DNA of 45,359 nt, from the sequence record MT496971.1. The stretch is one strand, 5' to 3'. The position numbers were made by a program, and so were the translations under genes. Numbering within the stretch: the first letter of the stretch is position 1; each line of letters begins with the position of its first letter. Under the pieces are notes generated by a model. That model made no database searches and was not told where the DNA came from. It was given only the letters and a program-made list of their open reading frames with translations. Positions 5,621-43,852 of this stretch are shown here, one piece after another. This DNA comes from Escherichia phage Mt1B1_P10.

Positions 5621-5908
5621 TTAAGCTACAGGGGTTACAGGTGTCTCCTCCATAGTGGTTGCATCCCAAGGGTCAGTTGGTTCACTACCACGTGCAATAG
5701 CGATGTACAAGGAGTTGTCTGCTTTCTCTACAGCAACCATGGAGCCTTTCTGTTTGCCAGATAAGTGTTTAATGTTGATAGGGTGATCTTTCTTCTTAAG
5801 GTCTGCTTCAGCAACAATAGGCAAAGGGATTGCCGTTGCAGTGGTTTGTACAGTTTTTACTCGAAAAGCTTGACCAGTAACAGTACCTGCGTTTCCATAA
5901 TTAGACAT
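5621..5908 (-). CDS. Hypothetical late protein, 95 aa; paralog of the next gene
   Basis: ATG with SD GAGGAG; shares MSN... N-terminus and an SGKQKG(S/A)MV...IAIA core with the 5921-6199 product. Confidence 0.6.
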   Translation of the reverse strand: MSNYGNAGTVTGQAFRVKTVQTTATAIPLPIVAEADLKKKDHPINIKHLSGKQKGSMVAVEKADNSLYIAIARGSEPTDPWDATTMEETPVTPVA

Positions 5909-5920
5909 GTAATTCTCCTC

Positions 5921-6199
5921 TTAAGCTGGGGTAATAGTTGTGACCGCTAATAACGTGGTCAGCCAATTGGAATCTTCTTTGCCATCAACTGCGATAGCAA
6001 TAACCAGTGTATCATGTGTATCAAGACACACCATGGCTCCTTTCTGCTTACCTGATTTGGTGGCATCATTAATAACATCACCTTTCTTCTCAACAGTGTC
6101 CTCGTAAACTACAGGAAGCATCAGGGCTTCACTCACAGGTTGTATCTGCTTACGAGCAGACTTACCGGTAAGGGGTTGTGTACTATAACTATTAGACAT
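5921..6199 (-). CDS. Hypothetical late protein, 92 aa; paralog of 5621-5908
   Basis: Start moved to ATG at 6199 (SD AGGAGA); the track start at 6259 is an upstream extension. Confidence 0.6.
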   Translation of the reverse strand: MSNSYSTQPLTGKSARKQIQPVSEALMLPVVYEDTVEKKGDVINDATKSGKQKGAMVCLDTHDTLVIAIAVDGKEDSNWLTTLLAVTTITPA

Positions 6200-6337
6200 T
6201 CTCTCTCCTATTGTGTAAGTATAGTAAGGAAGTAAGGAATAGGGTGTACAGGAGTACACCCATACTAAGGCATACCTATATAACCTAGGTTAACCTATAT
6301 TATCCTTGTTATTTCTCTTATTATCTGGGCCTTCCTT

Positions 6338-6355
6338 CTATAGTGTCCAGTAATT
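6338..6355 (-). promoter_or_regulatory. Phage RNAP promoter
   Basis: Minus-strand AATTACTGGACACTATAGAAGG overlapping the large terminase stop; upstream of the paralog pair and lysis genes. Confidence 0.7.
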
Positions 6356-13472: not shown

Positions 13473-13488
13473 GTCTCACATGTGAGAC
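13473..13488 (-). promoter_or_regulatory. Conserved 16-bp palindrome GTCTCAC-RY-GTGAGAC (copy 1)
   Basis: gtctcacatgtgagac between two internal virion protein genes; about 9-bp stem with flanks, followed by a U-rich tract on the transcript. Confidence 0.55.
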
Positions 13489-30022: not shown

Positions 30023-30038
30023 GTCTCACACGTGAGAC
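30023..30038 (-). promoter_or_regulatory. Conserved 16-bp palindrome GTCTCAC-RY-GTGAGAC (copy 2)
   Basis: gtctcacacgtgagac directly after the stop at 30040 and just upstream of the promoter. Confidence 0.55.
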
Positions 30039-31457: not shown

Positions 31458-31835
31458 TTATTTAGTCAAGTTGTCCAGTTCTATTTCCAGCATAACAATC
31501 TCTTTCTTCAGGCTGTCAGATGCAGCTTGATTTACAAGAGCAATTGATGCCTTGTTCTCTTCAAATTCAGCTTTCAGGCTGTCACGCTCTTGCTGGTGAC
31601 GTGCCAGCATATCTTCTACCTCTTTGACTTGACGTGCATTTAGTTCATCACGAGATGCATAGTAGCGGTTATGGCAGTCAATCATTTGAGAACTACGATG
31701 TTCTTCAACTTTAACTTGCTCTGCCTGTACTGCTTCGATGCGAGCCTCAATAGCTTTGATAGCCTTGGACTTGAACTTATTAGCAAGACCACGAAAGTAT
31801 TGAGCCACGAATACCAGAGTAGTTACCATAGACAT
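31458..31835 (-). CDS. Hypothetical coiled-coil protein, 125 aa
   Basis: ATG with SD AGGAGA downstream of a promoter; heptad-like charged repeats. Confidence 0.5.
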   Translation of the reverse strand: MSMVTTLVFVAQYFRGLANKFKSKAIKAIEARIEAVQAEQVKVEEHRSSQMIDCHNRYYASRDELNARQVKEVEDMLARHQQERDSLKAEFEENKASIALVNQAASDSLKKEIVMLEIELDNLTK

Positions 31836-31904
31836 ATTTATATCTCCTATATTTACTTAATTACCTATACTACCTTATAAACCTAGATTACCTAGGCTTT
31901 CCTT

Positions 31905-31922
31905 CTATAGTGTCCAGTAAAT
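31905..31922 (-). promoter_or_regulatory. Phage RNAP promoter
   Basis: Minus-strand ATTTACTGGACACTATAGAAGGAAAG. Confidence 0.75.
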
Positions 31923-35081: not shown

Positions 35082-35097
35082 GTCTCACGTGTGAGAC
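35082..35097 (-). promoter_or_regulatory. Conserved 16-bp palindrome GTCTCAC-RY-GTGAGAC (copy 3)
   Basis: gtctcacgtgtgagac; extended stem of about 9-10 bp, then a U-rich tract. Confidence 0.55.
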
Positions 35098-36515: not shown

Positions 36516-36531
36516 GTCTCACACGTGAGAC
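36516..36531 (-). promoter_or_regulatory. Conserved 16-bp palindrome GTCTCAC-RY-GTGAGAC (copy 4)
   Basis: gtctcacacgtgagac just after the primase stop, in the 5' leader of the next gene. Confidence 0.55.
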
Positions 36532-36552: not shown

Positions 36553-38538
36553 TCAGAACTCACTTTCTTCATCGAAGTTAGTCTCTTCTATAGTGTCCGG
36601 TAAATCAGGCACCTCTTGCTGCCTTGCTTCACCTGTATCAAATGACTTAGTACGGGCTTGTGGTTCCATCAAACGTCCGGTCTGAATGTCACCTTTAAGC
36701 ATGACCTTGGTTCCAGTCCAGATACCTTGGTCGCGGTCTTTGACACATGAGATGTACGTGGTAGTCCTTTCGTCAAGCGTTTCAGCTCTTGTATTACGCT
36801 CAATCCCCAAGGCGTAAGATGCCCAGAATCCGATAGCGCCTGAGCCTCGGAAGTCAGAAAGGATAACTTCGCCACCTTCTTCGTGTTGGGTACGGTTTGC
36901 CGGAGGACGTGTAAGGTGTGATACAAGGAATATAGTAACCGGGTGTCGGTCTTTGATAGTACCAATCCGCTTGACGCATTCATCAAGTGCACCAACCTTC
37001 CCACCAAAAGCACGCTCATCTAATTTAATCCCCGTTAAGTTATCAATGATGATATTAGAAATGCCCATAGCCTCAAACTCTAGGCAAGTTTGCTCTACCT
37101 TTTCCATCGAATAGTCACCCTCTAGGTCAGCCACAAACAGCTTACCTGTATCAGCTACATAATCAATGGCGGCGTTAGCTTCTTCCTCGGTGTAGTCGAA
37201 CACCTCACGGTATCCATCTTCTTTCGGGTCGTTGGTTGGCGGTAACTCAATACGCTTATCAATCCACTTGCCGATAAAAGCACGGGACACCTTGACCATC
37301 GGGTCTTCTGTAGAAATGATGCCTACAGATTCACCGTGTTCTTCAATGAGGTGCTTAACTACTTCACGAAGGAACTCAGTCTTACCTACACCAGACCCTG
37401 CACCTACAATGATAAGCTGGTTCTTACGAATACCTAGCGTTACCTTGTTCAGCTTAGGCCAAGGCCATGATAGCCCTTGCTCTGGACGTGCAGCCTTGAG
37501 CTTATCCCTTTGAGATGCGATAGATTTAATCTGGCTACCAAAGACTTCATCAGATGACTTGGCATTAAACCAAGCATCAACAAACTCTTTAGCCTTGCCA
37601 GCCATCAATGCCTTGTTAGCATCTTTGCAACCAGAAGGGTATTCAAGGATATAGGATTTGCCAGGAAACAGGCGAGCCGCTTGCTGATTCTGCTTCTGCC
37701 CTACCTCATCTCCATCAAAACCCCATATAATCTTCTTAAATTGGGCGATGTGTTCACGGTTCTGTACTATCTCTTCAAGGCAAGACTCACCTTTATTGAC
37801 AGACCATACATGGTAAGGCTGGCCTTCCCACTTAGTACCCTTGGCAGAATCAAGGAGCATTTGCTGTGCTGCTAGTGCATCCAGTTCGCCGCCCACAATA
37901 AGCAAGCAATCCTTTCGTCTTCCCTTGTCTAACACGTGAGACAAAGTATTCATACCGAAAAGATCTTGCATACCAAAGAGTTTACCTAAATGACCAAACT
38001 TAAAGTCTTTAGGTAATGTGCGACACTTAGCGCCTACTAGCTCACCTTTCTCGAATCGTGGATAGTAATGCCGTGAGACTCTACCATCTTCATCGTGTCC
38101 GACACGTACATCGTACAATGCGCAAATGTCGCCGCGAATGTGTCGGGAAACAAGATTCTTACGCTTAAGCGTGAGGAACCATTCAACATCAAGTTTCCAC
38201 TCTGTTTCTTGGTCTGTCCTTTCTTGCTCATTCATGACCTCCCAACGGTCTTTCATACGCATGGCACCTAATGCCAATGCGCGGTCTTCTGTTGTCTTAA
38301 TCTTCCCTTCTTTAATGAGGTCTTGGAACTGACTAACAGTCCACTTAGTTGCCCCAAGAGGTAGGTCTAGAATATTAGAAGACTCTCCAGCTTTCTCATA
38401 ATAAGGCTTACCATTACTATGAAAATGTGCACGGTTGCAATATTTACCGCCGTCATCAAACCAGATTAAATGATTTTGGCTACGATCGTGACCATTGCGA
38501 GCACATTCGGGGCACACAGAATTATTTATAATAGCCAT
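36553..38538 (-). CDS. DNA primase/helicase (T7 gp4-like), 661 aa
   Basis: N-terminal zinc ribbon CPECARNGHD...CNRAH; Walker A GAGSGVGKT; acidic C-terminus ending ...NFDEESEF. Confidence 0.9.
   Translation of the reverse strand: MAIINNSVCPECARNGHDRSQNHLIWFDDGGKYCNRAHFHSNGKPYYEKAGESSNILDLPLGATKWTVSQFQDLIKEGKIKTTEDRALALGAMRMKDRWEVMNEQERTDQETEWKLDVEWFLTLKRKNLVSRHIRGDICALYDVRVGHDEDGRVSRHYYPRFEKGELVGAKCRTLPKDFKFGHLGKLFGMQDLFGMNTLSHVLDKGRRKDCLLIVGGELDALAAQQMLLDSAKGTKWEGQPYHVWSVNKGESCLEEIVQNREHIAQFKKIIWGFDGDEVGQKQNQQAARLFPGKSYILEYPSGCKDANKALMAGKAKEFVDAWFNAKSSDEVFGSQIKSIASQRDKLKAARPEQGLSWPWPKLNKVTLGIRKNQLIIVGAGSGVGKTEFLREVVKHLIEEHGESVGIISTEDPMVKVSRAFIGKWIDKRIELPPTNDPKEDGYREVFDYTEEEANAAIDYVADTGKLFVADLEGDYSMEKVEQTCLEFEAMGISNIIIDNLTGIKLDERAFGGKVGALDECVKRIGTIKDRHPVTIFLVSHLTRPPANRTQHEEGGEVILSDFRGSGAIGFWASYALGIERNTRAETLDERTTTYISCVKDRDQGIWTGTKVMLKGDIQTGRLMEPQARTKSFDTGEARQQEVPDLPDTIEETNFDEESEF
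36588..36605 (-). promoter_or_regulatory. Phage RNAP promoter (within primase 3' end)
   Basis: Minus-strand ATTTACCGGACACTATAGAAGAGAC. Confidence 0.7.
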
Positions 38539-38539
38539 G

Positions 38540-38896
38540 TTATTTCCTTAGTAAACAGCCGTGATAAGTATTGTATGCAACTGACACCCACTCTAGGTTA
38601 TCCGCATTGTTGTTCAACTTGTTACCATCTTTATGATTTACAATATCAAAACTGGTAAGATTAGGGACGAAAGCAAGTGCAACCAATCGGTGTACTTTCT
38701 CAGTTCTAGGCGGGAAGTAGCTAAAGTCACCATGCTTTCTCATAGACAGACGAAGATAGCCATCTTTATCTGGGCTTCCCTTCATAATTTTAGGTGTCTT
38801 ACGCTTATGCTTGCCCCAATAGGCATTTGCCACTCTGCCCTTGTTAGATACTAGATATTTACCATCATAGCCTTTTACTGGTTTCCATATTTCCAT
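38540..38896 (-). CDS. HNH homing endonuclease (NUMOD4-like plus HNH), 118 aa
   Basis: WKPVKGYDGKYLVSNKGRV, HRLVALAF and VNHKDGNKLNNNADNLEW motifs; paralog of the HNH at 8239-8682. Confidence 0.8.
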   Translation of the reverse strand: MEIWKPVKGYDGKYLVSNKGRVANAYWGKHKRKTPKIMKGSPDKDGYLRLSMRKHGDFSYFPPRTEKVHRLVALAFVPNLTSFDIVNHKDGNKLNNNADNLEWVSVAYNTYHGCLLRK

Positions 38897-38899
38897 AAC

Positions 38900-39028
38900 T
38901 TAGAACTCCAACGCAGCGCGTTTAGATGCACGGTCACGGATAGGTTTATTCAGCTTCTTGCCTTTCTTCTGCCCTTCTTCCATGTCAAAACGGTTAGCTT
39001 TACGGGTCATCTTCTCAAAGTTACGCAT
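38900..39028 (-). CDS. T7 gp1.1-like small basic protein, 42 aa (below track cutoff)
   Basis: ATG at 39028 with SD GGAGA; MRNFEKMTRKANRFDMEEGQKKGKKLNKPIRDRASKRAALEF, strongly reminiscent of T7 gene 1.1 (MRNFEKMT...) as recalled. Confidence 0.55.
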   Translation of the reverse strand: MRNFEKMTRKANRFDMEEGQKKGKKLNKPIRDRASKRAALEF

Positions 39029-39058
39029 GGTTAAATCTCCAAAGTGAGTTAGTCTTAT

Positions 39059-39076
39059 CTATACTGTCCGGTAAAT
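39059..39076 (-). promoter_or_regulatory. Phage RNAP promoter (variant with G at -5)
   Basis: Minus-strand ATTTACCGGACAGTATAGATAAGAC, 31 nt upstream of the gp1.1-like ORF. Confidence 0.5.
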
Positions 39077-39081
39077 ACGAA

Positions 39082-39097
39082 GTCTCACATGTGAGAC
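39082..39097 (-). promoter_or_regulatory. Conserved 16-bp palindrome GTCTCAC-RY-GTGAGAC (copy 5)
   Basis: gtctcacatgtgagac immediately upstream of the promoter at 39059-39076. Confidence 0.55.
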
Positions 39098-39244
39098 AGC
39101 TTAGGTCTGCCCTTCCTCTAAATAGTAATAAGAGGAAGGAAGGAGGTAATAGGTACCCCTAGATAACTTATATAACCTTTAATACCTATTACTTCCTTTT
39201 ATATCCTTTTATCTTCCCCTTCTTTCCCGTCTCCGACGGCTATC

Positions 39245-39262
39245 CTATAGTGTCCGGTAAAT
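39245..39262 (-). promoter_or_regulatory. Phage RNAP promoter
   Basis: Minus-strand ATTTACCGGACACTATAGGATAG; the following ~150 nt have no ORF and end at palindrome copy 5. Confidence 0.65.
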
Positions 39263-39264
39263 AA

Positions 39265-39280
39265 GTCTCACATGTGAGAC
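39265..39280 (-). promoter_or_regulatory. Conserved 16-bp palindrome GTCTCAC-RY-GTGAGAC (copy 6)
   Basis: gtctcacatgtgagac between the RNAP gene end and the promoter at 39245. Confidence 0.55.
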
Positions 39281-39354
39281 ACGTTTATGTTAATGGAATG
39301 TTACATGTAGTAGGTAAAAGAAAAGGCCACTCCCGAAGGAATGGCCTATTAATA

Positions 39355-41982
39355 TTATGCGAAGCAATAGTCAGATACTAAGATTTCGTTAAGGTCAAAC
39401 TCTCCTTGCTCTGGCACTTGGATTCCGGTGTCTACTAACCAGCGCTCTTCATGCTCATCTAACAGGCTTTGCAGAGCGTTACGGCCTTGATACATCTTCA
39501 CCATTTCTGCCCTTAGACTATCACGTAGGTCTGCGGTGCGGCCTGCATGAGTACCGAAAGAGTCATGGATAACTGCAATGGAGGTAATACCTTTATCCAC
39601 TAGGTCGCACACCGTTAGAATCAGGTGGCTAGCATCATGGCCGTGCACGAAGTTAGGAGCAGCAGCGCCCATCATAGCCGTTTCATCCACTACGTCCGTT
39701 TCAATCTGTAGACTCATCTTGATTTCTCCCATCAGGCAAGTGGATACGCGGAGCATATCAGTAGCCATAATCTTTTGTTGCAGAATGAAGCCTGTGGGCA
39801 AGGTATACTCTAAGCCTTCATTTCTTTTAGCTGCGAAACGGGCAAGTTGACGAATCATTTTCATTGCCACTATAGGAGCTTTAACCACTTCCGAAATAGA
39901 AGGCCAGATTAAAGCTGTCATATAGTTATAAGCTGCGCTAGGTGTCAGGCTGTCTTTGCGGTCATTATCAAAAGGATGTACAGGATTGGCGGTACGCCCT
40001 TCCGCAATAGCCCGTTGGGCCTCTTTTTCTTCCAAATCAACGATATAATCAATCACTGACTCACGGCAGGTTAGACGTGTGCTGCCGTAAGGTAGTGTCA
40101 TTACGGGCTTTTTGGTCAGGCCGCGAGTGATTCCTATCATATCCCACGCACTAGCCATGCTACGCAGTTCCGCACCTGTTAAAGTCACGCTGCCAGAAGT
40201 GAAGGTTTCCGCATCCTCTGCATTCATGTATGCATAATTCTTCTGAATTACTACCTGCGCAACGGCACCATAAATATCTTGAGGGGAGTCAGAGGGCTTA
40301 AGGTTTACCGCTTTCGCACCTACTGCATCGCGTAGCATAGCACTGTAGTGCTGGATACCAGAACAACTACCATCTTGATGGACGGGGAGGTGCGTCATGA
40401 ATTGGTCTTGCGTGCCTTCATCCAGTGCATCCAGATAACGCGCATATTCAAAGCACCAAGCAAGGAAGCCGTAAGGGGAGTCGGCATTTACCCATTGAGT
40501 GAAAGTAAGCGGATCCGCTGCAATGTCGCGGCACATGTCTTGAAATTCACTATCCAGCACGTTAGCGGTGCGCACGTCAAAAGTCTTCTTATCCCAACCC
40601 CAGTTATTAGCCCCGTTCACCAAAAACCATTTAAGCGCCTCAGCGCTATCAAGGCGCTGCCCTTCGGTAAAACGGAGCAATGCCTTGCCTAAGTCGTTTG
40701 ATTGCGGAGAGAGCGTGCTAGATTGCGCGTAGACGCGGCTGCGGCTGTCCAGTGCATACACGAAGTAGATGGCGTCAAACTGGCTGTATTTACGTGCCTG
40801 CCCGACCATGCGGACGGTCGCCGCCGATTTGCTGCCGCGCTTAGTTTCAGCGGTATACAGCTTGGTACATTCGCCTTTCCAGTTGATGAAGGCTTGCCAT
40901 TGTTCCGGCGTTAGCATCTCTTTAAGTTCACGGCCTCGCAGGTGCTGGAACTCTAACGGCACTGGATTAGCTGGCTTGTTCTCACGGTCGATGAGCGGTT
41001 TAAAGGAAGGCACACCATAGCCGAGGTCTAGACGTATAACGTCCTCCACAACCTGTAAAACCTCTTTATTAACCTGCCACTTAGTTGCCTGCAAAGCGTT
41101 AACAGCCTTATAAACGGCTGGCATTTGCTTTTTGGTCAGCTTGCGGACGTGCTCACGATTGCCTTTTACCAGACGAATACGGCTTGCTACTTTCTCAGTA
41201 TGAAACCCACCGTTAAAAGGTGATACCCAAGGGCGGGGAGGTATAACGCAAGGTGCATAGGCAGGGCTGAGCTGCGCTACATGTTCCTTAAATGCAGTTA
41301 TCCACTCTCCAACATGTTCACTGGTCTGTAAATAGTAAACACCATGCTTTCCGCCGTTAGTGCGCAAGGTACGAAGGAAGACAGGTTGACCATTGAAGAA
41401 TACACTATTCTCCAATATTTCGAGCAAGGTCATACCGATTTGCAGCAAGGTGTCTTTAGGCCATGCCTCCCAACGGGAGAAATCCGCGTCACGGTCAGCA
41501 ACAGATTTCTCAGCTACTACCGCTACGTTGTGCGCATGACGATAAGATTTAGTCTTGCTAGCCTTAAGTGACTTCTTCACTTTCTCAAAGTACTTAGCTG
41601 CGTGACCTTCCAGCTTGCTAAAACGTACTTGGTCTTCGATGCGGTCCGCTACATTCATAGCGATTGCTTGTAAGGTAACGTCTGTATTCAGCATATCCAT
41701 AACGATTTTCATGGTGATATATGCTGCCACTTCGTTTCCTACGCAGTTAATGAAAGCTAATGCACGTGGTGCACGACCTCTCTTGCCTTCGTATTCTTCC
41801 TTGTAAGCCTGAATACCTTCCGCCATAGGTGCGATTAGTTCGGACAATAAGCGGCGATTCCATGCCGTGTCTGATTCATTACCGGATGCAATCTGGCGTT
41901 GTTGGTCCGCTTCAAAGCGACGGATGCCGCCGTTAAACATTTCTTCTTCAAGTTGAAGTTGAATAGCGTGTAGGTCTTGCAT
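39355..41982 (-). CDS. Single-subunit DNA-directed RNA polymerase (SP6-type), 875 aa
   Basis: N-terminus [32 protein letters not shown] matches SP6 RNAP as recalled; catalytic motifs [16 protein letters not shown] and [11 protein letters not shown]; ATG with SD AGGAG. Confidence 0.95.
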
Positions 41983-42045: not shown

Positions 42046-42930
42046 TTACTTAGTCAACTCTTCTACTGCCTCAGAGATTAAGGGCCATGCTTCATGGCCT
42101 TCACCGTAGCCTAGCTTAACCAGTTCGCGGCGTGCCTTGTTAACTGCTGTTTTCTTCGTTGCCTCCTCGGCGCTTAAACCTAAGCGAGCATAGAAGCAGG
42201 AAGATTTGAATTGCGGCAGCATAGGCGCGGCTGCCTTCTTGCTTTCGCGTGCGCTACTTAAGGAGGCGATGCGGTCATTAGCTGCCTGTAATTGCTCAGT
42301 CAGTGCCTTAATTTGTGCCAGCAGACCGGCAATAGCGGCATTCTCAGTATTAGCCGTGTTATCCAGCGGCGCTGACTTCGGTGCTTCCGGCTTGCTTTCC
42401 TCTTCCCACGGTGCTGATTCGTCGGCCTCCTGCTCGCTCGCGGGTGGCACTACCTGCGGCGCTTGCATTTCCTGTGATTCTGCGGCCCCCGTCGCGTTCT
42501 CCTGTGGTTTTACTGTCTCAGCCTTAGATTGTACCGTCTCAGCCTTTGTCTCTTTCTTAGGATCAATCAGGGCGTTTACGGCGTTAGTGTCCAGCTTGCC
42601 CTCTGCGGCGAGTTCTGCGGCCTTCTCCATGATTATATTTTCATCAGCGAAAGGAACAAGCGCCAGCATTACCCTCATAGCCACACCTTTAAAGCGTTCG
42701 TCTCCTTCAAAGACACGGGCTACACTCATCAGCTTGTAGCATTGTGCCTTCTTGATGCCGAACTCTGATTCTACATAAGCTAAAAAGTCTTTTTGACCTT
42801 CGAAATCACCGCGTAATTCATTCAGACAAGCGCCAACTTTGATGTAAGAAGTGCCGATATTGTCTAAGTGCTGCTTGATTTCAGCGGTTGCAGCTTCACG
42901 AACAGACAGGAGGACGTTTTCAGTAGTCAT
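42046..42930 (-). CDS. Hypothetical early protein with acidic/Pro-rich low-complexity linker, 294 aa
   Basis: Start moved to ATG at 42930 (SD AAGGTGA); track start is GTG; no recognisable catalytic motifs. Confidence 0.6.
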   Translation of the reverse strand: MTTENVLLSVREAATAEIKQHLDNIGTSYIKVGACLNELRGDFEGQKDFLAYVESEFGIKKAQCYKLMSVARVFEGDERFKGVAMRVMLALVPFADENIIMEKAAELAAEGKLDTNAVNALIDPKKETKAETVQSKAETVKPQENATGAAESQEMQAPQVVPPASEQEADESAPWEEESKPEAPKSAPLDNTANTENAAIAGLLAQIKALTEQLQAANDRIASLSSARESKKAAAPMLPQFKSSCFYARLGLSAEEATKKTAVNKARRELVKLGYGEGHEAWPLISEAVEELTK

Positions 42931-42993
42931 AGTAATCACCTTATATAGTGTAAGTAAATATCACATAGCCCACGTAGATAGGCTATAGGATAA

Positions 42994-43179
42994 TTACTCT
43001 CTCCAAAGGTGTTTTAATGCCTTATTGCAGTACTCATAAGTATGACTCTTACTGCATAAGGTGTATTTCTCAGCCCACTTTTGCTGAGCTTGTTCTATCT
43101 TGTAAGCGTCATAGCCAGCCTTTGCAGCAAAAGCAAGGACAAGTGAAGACAACAACAGGCATCCAATCAAGGTTTTCAT
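42994..43179 (-). CDS. Small early protein with predicted signal peptide, 61 aa
   Basis: ATG with SD AGGAG; MKTLIGCLLLSSLVLAFAAKAG hydrophobic N-terminus then a Cys-containing soluble part. Confidence 0.5.
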   Translation of the reverse strand: MKTLIGCLLLSSLVLAFAAKAGYDAYKIEQAQQKWAEKYTLCSKSHTYEYCNKALKHLWRE

Positions 43180-43370: not shown

Positions 43371-43703
43371 TTATTTTTCCTCTTCTTCGTCTTCATACCA
43401 AACTACATCGCTGTCATTTGGTACATCATTATAAAGAGCTTCATAGATGCGAGCTTGAAGAATCATGGTTACATCCTTCGTATCAGGAATCAAACCAGCG
43501 TCTTCAAACTCAACATCAATACCATCCGCAGCCATCACAGTAAAGATTTCGCTGTAATAAACTGGAACATGACTATCTACAACCTCATGCAGTGCATCAG
43601 AGTAATCATCATCTTCACGAATCTCATCGTACTTGATGCGCTCGTTGAATGCTTCAACAGTTGCAGCCAGAAGGTTGTAGTAAGCGTTAGCGTTGCGTTC
43701 CAT
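43371..43703 (-). CDS. ocr: Ocr-like DNA-mimic anti-restriction protein (T7 gp0.3 homolog), 110 aa
   Basis: ERIKYDEIREDDD...VPVYYSEIFTVMAADGIDVEFEDAGLIPDTKDVTMILQARIYEAL parallels T7 Ocr as recalled; highly acidic, ends in EEEEK; ATG with SD GAGGA. Confidence 0.85.
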   Translation of the reverse strand: MERNANAYYNLLAATVEAFNERIKYDEIREDDDYSDALHEVVDSHVPVYYSEIFTVMAADGIDVEFEDAGLIPDTKDVTMILQARIYEALYNDVPNDSDVVWYEDEEEEK

Positions 43704-43852
43704 GATTTAATCCTCATTAGTTAGTTAGGTTACATTATAGGGCACTCAAAAGAATACCCTAGGTTTAACCTATCCAGACTAAGAAGCGACTACCCATATT
43801 GTTAAAGAGCGTGGCTTGTGCCTTGATAGGCTGGCTAGTGCCAGCAACTATC

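Follow-up and report, generated by a model that had tools for sequence, protein, structure and literature searches.

The intergenic interval between gene 1 and gene 1.1 of phage T7 is a known phage control region. Two tandem promoters, phi1.1A (at 5848) and phi1.1B (at 5923), are located there, and the intervening RNA forms a predicted hairpin, the R1.1 RNase III site (Dunn and Studier 1983). T7 replication also starts at phi1.1A/phi1.1B; the secondary origins of this phage are likewise promoters, and no T7 origin works without a T7 promoter (PMC8373140). The phi1.1B leader, which forms the A+T-rich region of the origin, displays ~8 TTAAG-type units with a spacing of roughly 5–13 nt. Two other described systems involve reiterated or isolated purine-rich motifs in RNA. 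Bacillus STAB-SD is an SD-like mRNA stabiliser, and CsrB/RsmZ are multi-site sponge RNAs with GGA in hairpin loops.

The window analyzed here is the complete 45,359-nt stretch deposited for Escherichia phage Mt1B1_P10 (MT496971.1). Judging from its sequence, it is a Vectrevirus genome (K1E/K1-5-like, SP6 supergroup) in minus-strand reading. BLAST of the region retrieved >100 matching phage records, with Vectrevirus (K1E, K1-5, and relatives) forming a group at 90–96% identity and a second group, at 60–80% identity, including SP6-type Zindervirus and unclassified Klebsiella Molineuxvirinae. Between the RNA polymerase (RNAP) gene and the gene 1.1 homologue, the window contains a noncoding segment, referred to here as the leader. 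To judge from the folding and comparative results described below, it is a real, conserved feature and the most structured RNA candidate in the genome, and not a new kind of element. By analogy, it is best filed with the T7 gene 1/gene 1.1 interval, and the array of decamers that it contains is a sub-feature deserving separate attention. Our preferred reading, with a probability of roughly 40%, is that the segment is a structured leader processed by RNase III and corresponds, in the SP6 group, to the phi1.1A–R1.1–phi1.1B interval of T7.

The interval marks the start of transcription by the phage's own polymerase, and its T7 equivalent also starts DNA replication. Phage therapy makes use of K1E, K1-5, and SP6-type phages, and biotechnology of their polymerases; a literature search found no transcript or origin maps for these phages. 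A conserved leader element offers a handle on the processing of middle-gene messages, on the retention of a T7-like origin, and on the role of the recurrent AGGTA arrays. If the leader is only an R1.1 equivalent, the finding is confirmatory and not surprising.

Genomic Setting of the Leader

The upstream neighbor of the leader in the ORF list is the gene for a phage single-subunit RNAP (875 aa; 39355–41982, minus strand), the homologue of which is annotated as RNA polymerase in K1E, K1-5, and SP6. A terminator scan placed a rho-independent terminator after this gene (39314–39347, minus strand), with a 10-bp stem followed by TTTCTTTT. It is annotated as such in phage R4596, and its hairpin is kept in all relatives with varying stem sequence. 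A ~30-nt block between the terminator and the first palindrome (39283–39313, minus strand), containing CCTACTACATGTAACATTCCATTAACATAAAC, is strongly conserved in Vectrevirus, Zindervirus, and cp4-type Klebsiella phages and absent in the KPN7 lineage. Judged by eye, this block is more conserved than the leader.

A promoter at 39245 had been proposed in the first-pass annotation, and the site proved to be a perfect match to the 17-nt phage promoter pattern (promoter A, TTTACCGGACACTATAG; 39245–39261, minus strand; 0 mismatches) with the +1 G at 39245. It is one of two perfect matches in the window, where the pattern with ≤3 mismatches matches 15 times versus 0.3 expected by chance. Promoter A is 100% identical in K1E, and its position is occupied in each relative by the promoter type of that relative's own lineage. 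We infer that the region with the hairpin is transcribed from promoter A. A second promoter (promoter B, TTTACCGGACAGTATAG; 39059–39075, minus strand; +1 at 39059), located with the promoter pattern and a repeat finder, lies 186 nt from the first.

Downstream, gene 8 (38900–39028, minus strand) encodes a 42-aa basic protein homologous to T7 gp1.1 (Pfam PF08200, Phage_1_1; E = 5.3e-14). The "gene 9" of one SP6 record was set aside as an extended call of this gene 1.1 homologue, with overlap into the promoter B region. A NUMOD4/HNH homing endonuclease gene (38540–38896, minus strand) is situated between gene 8 and the primase/helicase gene, in a slot with varying content: gene 8.5 in K1E, nothing in K1-5, and HNH genes in UAB_Phi78 and BP12B.

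Palindromes flank the leader. The palindrome count and the repeat finder identified GTCTCAC-AT-GTGAGAC (39265–39280) directly upstream of promoter A, and the 19-nt module at this palindrome recurs identically at 39080–39098. There, the palindrome GTCTCACATGTGAGAC (39082–39097), also detected in the terminator scan, closes the leader as a weak terminator-like hairpin followed by UUCGUAUUU. The segment had been annotated as ending at a palindrome copy, and this copy is perfect. The palindrome occurs in 7 copies in the window versus 0 expected. Members of the GTCTCAC-NN-GTGAGAC family are located at 13473–13488, 30023–30038, 35082–35097, 36516–36531, 37927–37942, 39082–39097, and 39265–39280; six of the seven are intergenic, and three are directly upstream of phage promoters. 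Those at 13473, 35082, and 36516 extend to 12–13-bp hairpins with U-rich tails after genes, in the manner of terminators or 3′-end stabilizers. Each relative lineage has its own palindrome variant, and the symmetric variants include GTCCAAC..GTTGGAC in SP6 and Klebsiella phages, GTCTAACGCGTTAGAC in Vibrio BD1, and GTCTCACACTGTGAGAC in Pseudomonas Alpheus.

Leader intervals were gathered from annotated phages and from pattern scans of viral and metagenome contigs, yielding ~35 distinct leaders. All relatives share a common order of terminator, palindrome, promoter A, leader, promoter B, and Phage_1_1 gene. Most also possess a second palindrome ahead of promoter B; the KPN7 lineage has none between the promoters.

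The leader spans 148 nt (39098–39245, minus strand). It had been described as ~150 nt without ATG, which is correct and extends to GTG, TTG, and CTG. A coding role was rejected given that there is no start codon and that stops are present in all three frames, and the small ORFs annotated in the interval in SE29 and pKP-M186-2.1 were dismissed as gene-caller output lacking conservation. The leader contains zero TG dinucleotides, whereas ~8 NTG are expected from composition (P < 0.0005). Homologous leaders in relatives have 0 or 1 TG. CA is also scarce, with one occurrence (by eye and with no shuffle comparison), and pyrimidine–purine steps are nearly all TpA. The absence of TG may be a by-product of the repeat unit, since neither the unit nor its complement has TG, or it may reflect selection against start codons beside SD-like motifs. 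An Rfam scan of 38800–39500 (E ≤ 10) reached no family, with the best match at 23.9 bits versus a gathering threshold of 70. The top sub-threshold matches were generic long-hairpin families, mainly sRNA and miRNA-precursor models.

The Decamer Array

An array of AGG(T/A)A-type decamers (39171–39224, minus strand; unit consensus WWATAGGTAAT) was detected by Tandem Repeats Finder with a period of 10, a feature that the first-pass annotation had overlooked. Six units are present in the window, with AGG starts at +26, +39, +49, +59, and +68 and a further one at +86. Across 10 lineages, 41 of 53 intervals between AGG starts measure 9–10 nt, and the array starts at ~+26 to +31. The 5′ arm of the long hairpin described below belongs to this array. 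The CU-rich arm, consisting of inverted copies, is not regular (spacings 3–11 nt). Across the leaders compared, the array is evidently more deeply conserved than the hairpin. Vibrio phage BD1 displays six AGG units plus one degenerate unit and no CU-rich arm, with a gene starting directly after the last unit.

Further TAGGT(A/T) arrays occur just downstream of phage promoters at 31834–31905 and 6196–6338 (both minus strand). The array after promoter 31905 has units at +13, +22, +31, and +40, a degenerate unit at +49, and a real ribosome-binding site at +58, with which it is in register; it lacks a complementary arm. This array is conserved in the Zindervirus contig L053 (11562–11601). Behind the array at promoter 6338 come a GGGUGUAC hairpin and a CU-rich tract. 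The leader there shows no significant structure overall (z = −0.39), and a family of leader hairpins was rejected on this result despite the shared array and tract. Phages of other subfamilies (Edwardsiella, Pseudomonas, Vibrio) also have an array directly behind the first phage promoter that follows the RNAP gene, built on different units of ~10 nt: AGTAAGCT in Edwardsiella DT115P1, ACCAGTAGTG in Pseudomonas Alpheus, and TAGAGnnA in Vibrio Vp670. The loci of these other arrays, including that of T7, are L071 ~1750–1830, L073 ~1375–1450, L072 ~1650–1710, and L070 224–307.

The decamer unit AATAGGTA resembles the phage's own ribosome-binding site AATAGGAG; the AGGUA core of the leader is a weaker anti-SD match than the phage's own ribosome-binding sites. 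Like Bacillus STAB-SD, the leader has SD-like motifs without start codons. The difference is that STAB-SD has one unit, whereas the leader has six phased units, most of them sequestered in the predicted helix. Similarly, the leader resembles CsrB/RsmZ as a noncoding RNA with a reiterated short purine motif but differs in its core (AGG + U/A + A), in that GGA units occur only in Vectrevirus, and in having no Rfam match. CsrA, Hfq, and TRAP-like motifs, judged from the leader sequences, were rejected for misfit of spacing or core or for not being conserved. A promoter decoy was also considered, as the decamers are like the upstream half of the SP6 promoter (TTAGGTGAC). The unit remains TAGGTA despite differing promoters in K1E (ACCGGACA), KPN7 (GTGGCGAG), BD1 (ACAGGACC), and L195 (AAGACCAC); therefore, it does not track polymerase specificity and is not a promoter mimic.

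Predicted Fold of the Leader

The leader comprises four parts: a 5′ stem-loop, the AGG(T/A)A decamer array, a long imperfect hairpin, and a second hairpin of 9 bp. In the predicted folds, the 5′-proximal stem-loop CCGUC-GGA-GACGG occupies +7 to +19 (39227–39239, minus strand). The long hairpin (39140–39198, minus strand), recovered by folding, the repeat finder, and a genome-wide window scan, is composed of 5 bp, an A·C 1×1 loop, 12 bp, an internal loop, 4 bp, and an apical loop. It is predicted to pair the last decamers with the CU-rich tract UACCUAUUACCUCCUU. The repeat finder returned arms at 39140–39155 and 39183–39198 that are 15/16 complementary (94%) and 27 nt apart. A 14-nt stem had previously been noted here; its 13/14 pairing and ~27-nt spacing were borne out, but both arms had been placed one base off, the corrected positions being 39196→39183 for GGAAGTAATAGGTA and 39155→39142 for TACCTATTACCTCC. 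The second hairpin (CCUUCCUCU/AGAGGAAGG; 39111–39139, minus strand), found by folding and the repeat finder, has a 9-bp stem and an 11-nt loop.

The 161-nt transcript folds at −47.1 kcal/mol, with z = −2.7 against dinucleotide shuffles, and the 90-nt core of the leader gives z = −2.9 against the same type of control. Whole-sequence shuffling is a weak null here because any mix of purine-rich and pyrimidine-rich sequence folds well. When only the 3′ half was shuffled, which preserves the purine-rich/pyrimidine-rich asymmetry, the window leader reached z = −4.3, with 0 of 300 shuffles as stable. In the GC-corrected scan of 9,054 overlapping 90-nt sense-strand windows, 39110–39199 ranks first (z = −4.74). 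Sense and antisense folding energies were mixed (4 to 3), with antisense equal or better in three of seven comparisons.

Conservation in Relatives and Covariation

The first-pass annotation had named a lack of structural conservation in relatives as a result that would speak against it. Such conservation is present, with the three-hairpin layout occurring in Vectrevirus, Zindervirus, and two Klebsiella-phage lineages. It is predicted for the leaders of Vectrevirus, SP6, BP12B, SE29, L063, L117, cp4, KPN7, and L195. The arm sequences differ by lineage, as seen in the window (GUAAUAGGUAUU/GGUACCUAUUAC), L117 (AAGGAGAGGUAAU/GUUACCUCUCCUU), cp4 (AAUAAAGGGAAG/CUUCCUUUAUU), and KPN7 (AUAGGUAUACCU/AGGUAUACCUAU). 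In all 15 lineage representatives, the native leader is more stable than its 3′-half shuffles, with z between −2.2 and −7.8. Counted manually on predicted structures, the main hairpin domain comprises ~21 bp in the window; the counts for relatives run from roughly 20 to 41 bp.

Between the window and SP6, the leader is 63% identical and RNAP third codon positions are 38% identical. The corresponding comparison with K1E gives 92.6% for the leader and 90.9% for synonymous sites, with promoters and palindromes at 98–100%. At the K1E distance, the leader thus appears to evolve about like synonymous sites.

A covariance model (R1) built from the Vectrevirus alignment matched over its full length in every Molineuxvirinae lineage searched, whereas T7, Vibrio BD1, Edwardsiella, Vp670, and Alpheus gave no match. 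In the model-guided alignment of 33 distinct sequences, 91.6% of cells are paired, versus 81.8% for column shuffles (0 of 500 reach the native value) and 43–54% for slid controls. Double changes are found in 27 of 38 pairs, in an alignment that was fitted to the structure and in which the SP6 and Klebsiella rows lose much of the long helix. The 5′ stem-loop is paired in 33 of 33 sequences, five of which show a clean G–C to U–A double change. For the second hairpin, the model-fitted alignment has double changes in eight of nine pairs. In L032, two substitutions in this hairpin would permit a shifted 7-bp stem when drawn by hand; the predicted fold is without such a stem. On the sense strand, G·U cells number 74 and A·C cells 36.

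The unambiguous Vectrevirus-only alignment contains no pair with a compensatory double change, and its single changes keep pairing at 7 sites versus breaking it at 4, approximately the chance ratio. A chimera test for lineage-specific co-evolution of the arms was negative: 5′ halves joined to the 3′ halves of other lineages fold nearly as stably (−14.4 kcal/mol) as natives (−17.3 kcal/mol). The pairing may thus be a simple consequence of a single motif that occurs in either orientation. Since one motif family, with its complement, makes up both arms, base-pair covariation is weak. That the architecture is conserved is well supported; this support does not extend to selection for individual base pairs.

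Functional Readings of the Leader

Under the preferred reading, the segment would be the noncoding 5′ leader of the transcription unit that the phage RNAP reads first. The first 19 nt of the RNA from promoter A would form a small protective stem-loop. The SD-like AGG(U/A)A decamers would then pair with the CU-rich tract to give an interrupted helix of ~21 bp, followed by the 9-bp hairpin. Host RNase III would cut the transcribed helix, as in T7 R1.1, separating the leader from the gene 8–primase/helicase message and leaving hairpin-protected ends. Promoter B, situated downstream, would be the source of an unprocessed, short-leader version of the same message.

Several observations are consistent with this proposal. 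A helix of at least 21 bp in an abundant transcript of an enterobacterial host is an expected RNase III substrate, and the main-hairpin range of the relatives is sufficient for a substrate of this enzyme. As in an RNase III site, a promoter lies upstream on the same strand, and the hairpin is interrupted and comprises at least ~20 bp (5 + 12 + 4 bp). As for the R1.1 context, the hairpin lies between tandem promoters, after gene 1 and before gene 1.1. The positional parallel with T7 that had been drawn earlier holds, in that two tandem phage promoters follow the RNAP gene and a Phage_1_1 gene lies downstream; the interval is at ~15% of the genome in K1E and likewise in T7. Both hairpins have about two helical turns with internal loops. 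The lack of any start codon, the top rank of the leader in the genome-wide structure scan, the shuffle results for the 15 representatives, the shared three-hairpin layout, the paired-cell excess and double changes in the 33-sequence alignment, the surplus of G·U over A·C, the higher identity to SP6 than at RNAP third codon positions, and the T7-like hairpins of the early region also speak for the proposal. The small stem-loop at +7 to +19 resembles the 5′-terminal stem-loops of T7-group transcripts.

The two loci also differ. The promoters are 75 nt apart in T7 and 186 nt apart here, and R1.1 has no decamer array, whereas the 5′ arm lies in the array here; given the array, the "stem" may partly reflect one motif in both orientations. 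A host terminator precedes the hairpin here and stands upstream of promoter A; therefore, unlike at T7 R1.1, the early RNAP message would not be processed at this site. Searches for homology to R1.1 gave no support: the covariance model had no match in the T7 locus at E ≤ 1, and the longest word shared by the window and T7 is not significant. A 10-mer shared with T7 (ACCTTCTTCC) was discarded as evidence of homology, being limited to K1E-type sequences (P ~0.03, uncorrected) and missing from the window. The lack of an Rfam match, the missing compensatory changes within Vectrevirus, the chimera result, the antisense folds, the fitting of the 33-sequence alignment to the structure, and the arrays that have no complementary arm in BD1 and after promoter 31905 also weigh against the proposal. 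Overall, the comparison with T7 is strong in position and weak in sequence, and the first-pass interpretation is partly supported. A literature search found no transcript data for SP6-group phages.

A rather unlikely alternative, which also draws on the T7 analogy, is a replication origin at which RNAs started at promoter A serve as primers for leading-strand DNA synthesis, on the model of the T7 primary origin with phi1.1A/phi1.1B and a downstream A+T-rich stretch. The hybrid of the purine-rich array RNA with DNA would be stable, and the TpA-rich sequence of the array would help unwinding and the loading of helicase. The position matches T7, in that the gene 1.1 homologue is separated from the RNAP gene by tandem promoters at ~15% of the genome, and the promoters that every T7 origin needs are present as A and B. 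The phased 9–10-nt repeats are iteron-like, the arrays after two other promoters could mark secondary origins, and the T7 phi1.1B leader also has its TTAAG-type units. Both loci combine tandem promoters with an A+T-enriched, TpA-rich repeat stretch downstream of a promoter. In T7, however, this stretch follows the second promoter, whereas here it lies between the two. The leader has 60% A+T versus ~55% for the genome, an enrichment in the direction of an origin but modest next to the T7 origin, which is reportedly ~79% A+T (a value attributed to Saito et al. 1980).

The best single GC-skew breakpoint of the whole window falls at 39250 (block-permutation P ~0.04), as an origin might produce. 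The sense-strand excess of G over C is ~0.13 downstream and ~0.04 upstream of ~39250. The breakpoint coincides with the switch from host to phage polymerase transcription and is therefore nondiscriminating. The CU-rich arm, with its irregular spacings, does not resemble an iteron array, and at two loci (after promoter 31905 and in BD1) the final decamer serves as a gene's ribosome-binding site, which points to a role at the RNA level. A literature search found no mapped origin in any SP6-group phage. Roles in replication and in RNA processing can coexist by analogy with T7, where both are present.

We consider it improbable that the span from promoter A to the palindrome at 39082–39097 is a self-contained small RNA, a ~165-nt noncoding unit acting in trans through binding of its SD-like decamers or its CU-rich, anti-SD-like ACCUCCUU tract to 30S subunits, mRNAs, or an RNA-binding protein. 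A separate unit of this kind would account for the second promoter straight after the leader. The unit has its own promoter and no coding potential, lacks start codons despite six SD-like motifs, and is flanked on either side by identical palindrome-plus-promoter modules. The similarity of AATAGGTA to the ribosome-binding site AATAGGAG would suit 30S binding, as would the presence of ACCUCCUU, which equals the 3′ end of 16S rRNA, in the window, SP6, and SE29. This octamer is not conserved, however, being replaced by ACCUUCUU in K1E and ACUUCCUU in BP12B, and the arrays of distant phages at the equivalent position use non-SD units (AGTAAGCT, CCAGTAGTG). The lack of start codons loses weight in that a repeat unit and complement without TG can produce the TG deficit as a side effect. 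As for the 3′ end, the closing palindrome, the only terminator candidate, scored as terminator-like (6-bp stem, T-rich tail), and its longer versions (12–13 bp with a U-rich tail) follow genes at 13473, 35082, and 36516. Its own stem is limited to 6 bp with 3 G–C pairs and an interrupted U tail, which makes a poor terminator for T7-type polymerases, and the KPN7 lineage has no palindrome between the promoters at all.

Little likelihood is also given to a bolder proposal, in which the WWATAGGTAAT array, a phased series of crippled ribosome-binding sites with one unit per 9–10 nt from about +27 to +31 onward, would be a cis-element in its own right, hitherto undescribed, in phages of the SP6 group and related ones. 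It would recruit a factor acting in trans, which could be the 30S subunit or a nucleic-acid-binding protein of the phage, for example the basic gp1.1 homologue of the adjacent gene. At the RNAP-proximal locus, the helix with the CU-rich, anti-SD-like tract would hold or release the array, so that the leader would serve as a switchable decoy or loading pad instead of a simple processing site.

Least likely of all is that the array acts as DNA, with a phage or host protein binding the phased TAGGTA decamers downstream of promoters 39245, 31905, and 6338 as a roadblock or regulator of phage-polymerase transcription and the inverted copies in the 3′ arm being extra sites and not part of an RNA helix: the regular 9–10-bp phasing, the near-fixed distance of the array from +1 in all lineages, the constancy of the unit across phages with different promoters, the recurrence after three promoters (one array being conserved in a Zindervirus contig), and the interchangeability of halves from different lineages would fit, but no candidate binding protein was identified, the inverted copies are irregularly spaced, G·U exceeds A·C on the sense strand, the 5′ stem-loop covaries like an RNA helix, and the last unit is a real ribosome-binding site at two loci.

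Other Structured Regions in the Window

The second most structured 90-nt sense window (37520–37609, minus strand) contains a ~30-bp hairpin inside the primase/helicase coding sequence. Long interrupted hairpins at 43705–43794, 42930–43019, and 43430–43519 (all minus strand) also rank high for structure within the genome; the first two fall in gaps between early genes, and the third is inside an ORF. The early region of the window has long intergenic hairpins like those of T7 and of similar size, and those at 43705–43794 and 42930–43019 look like T7-type early RNase III sites.
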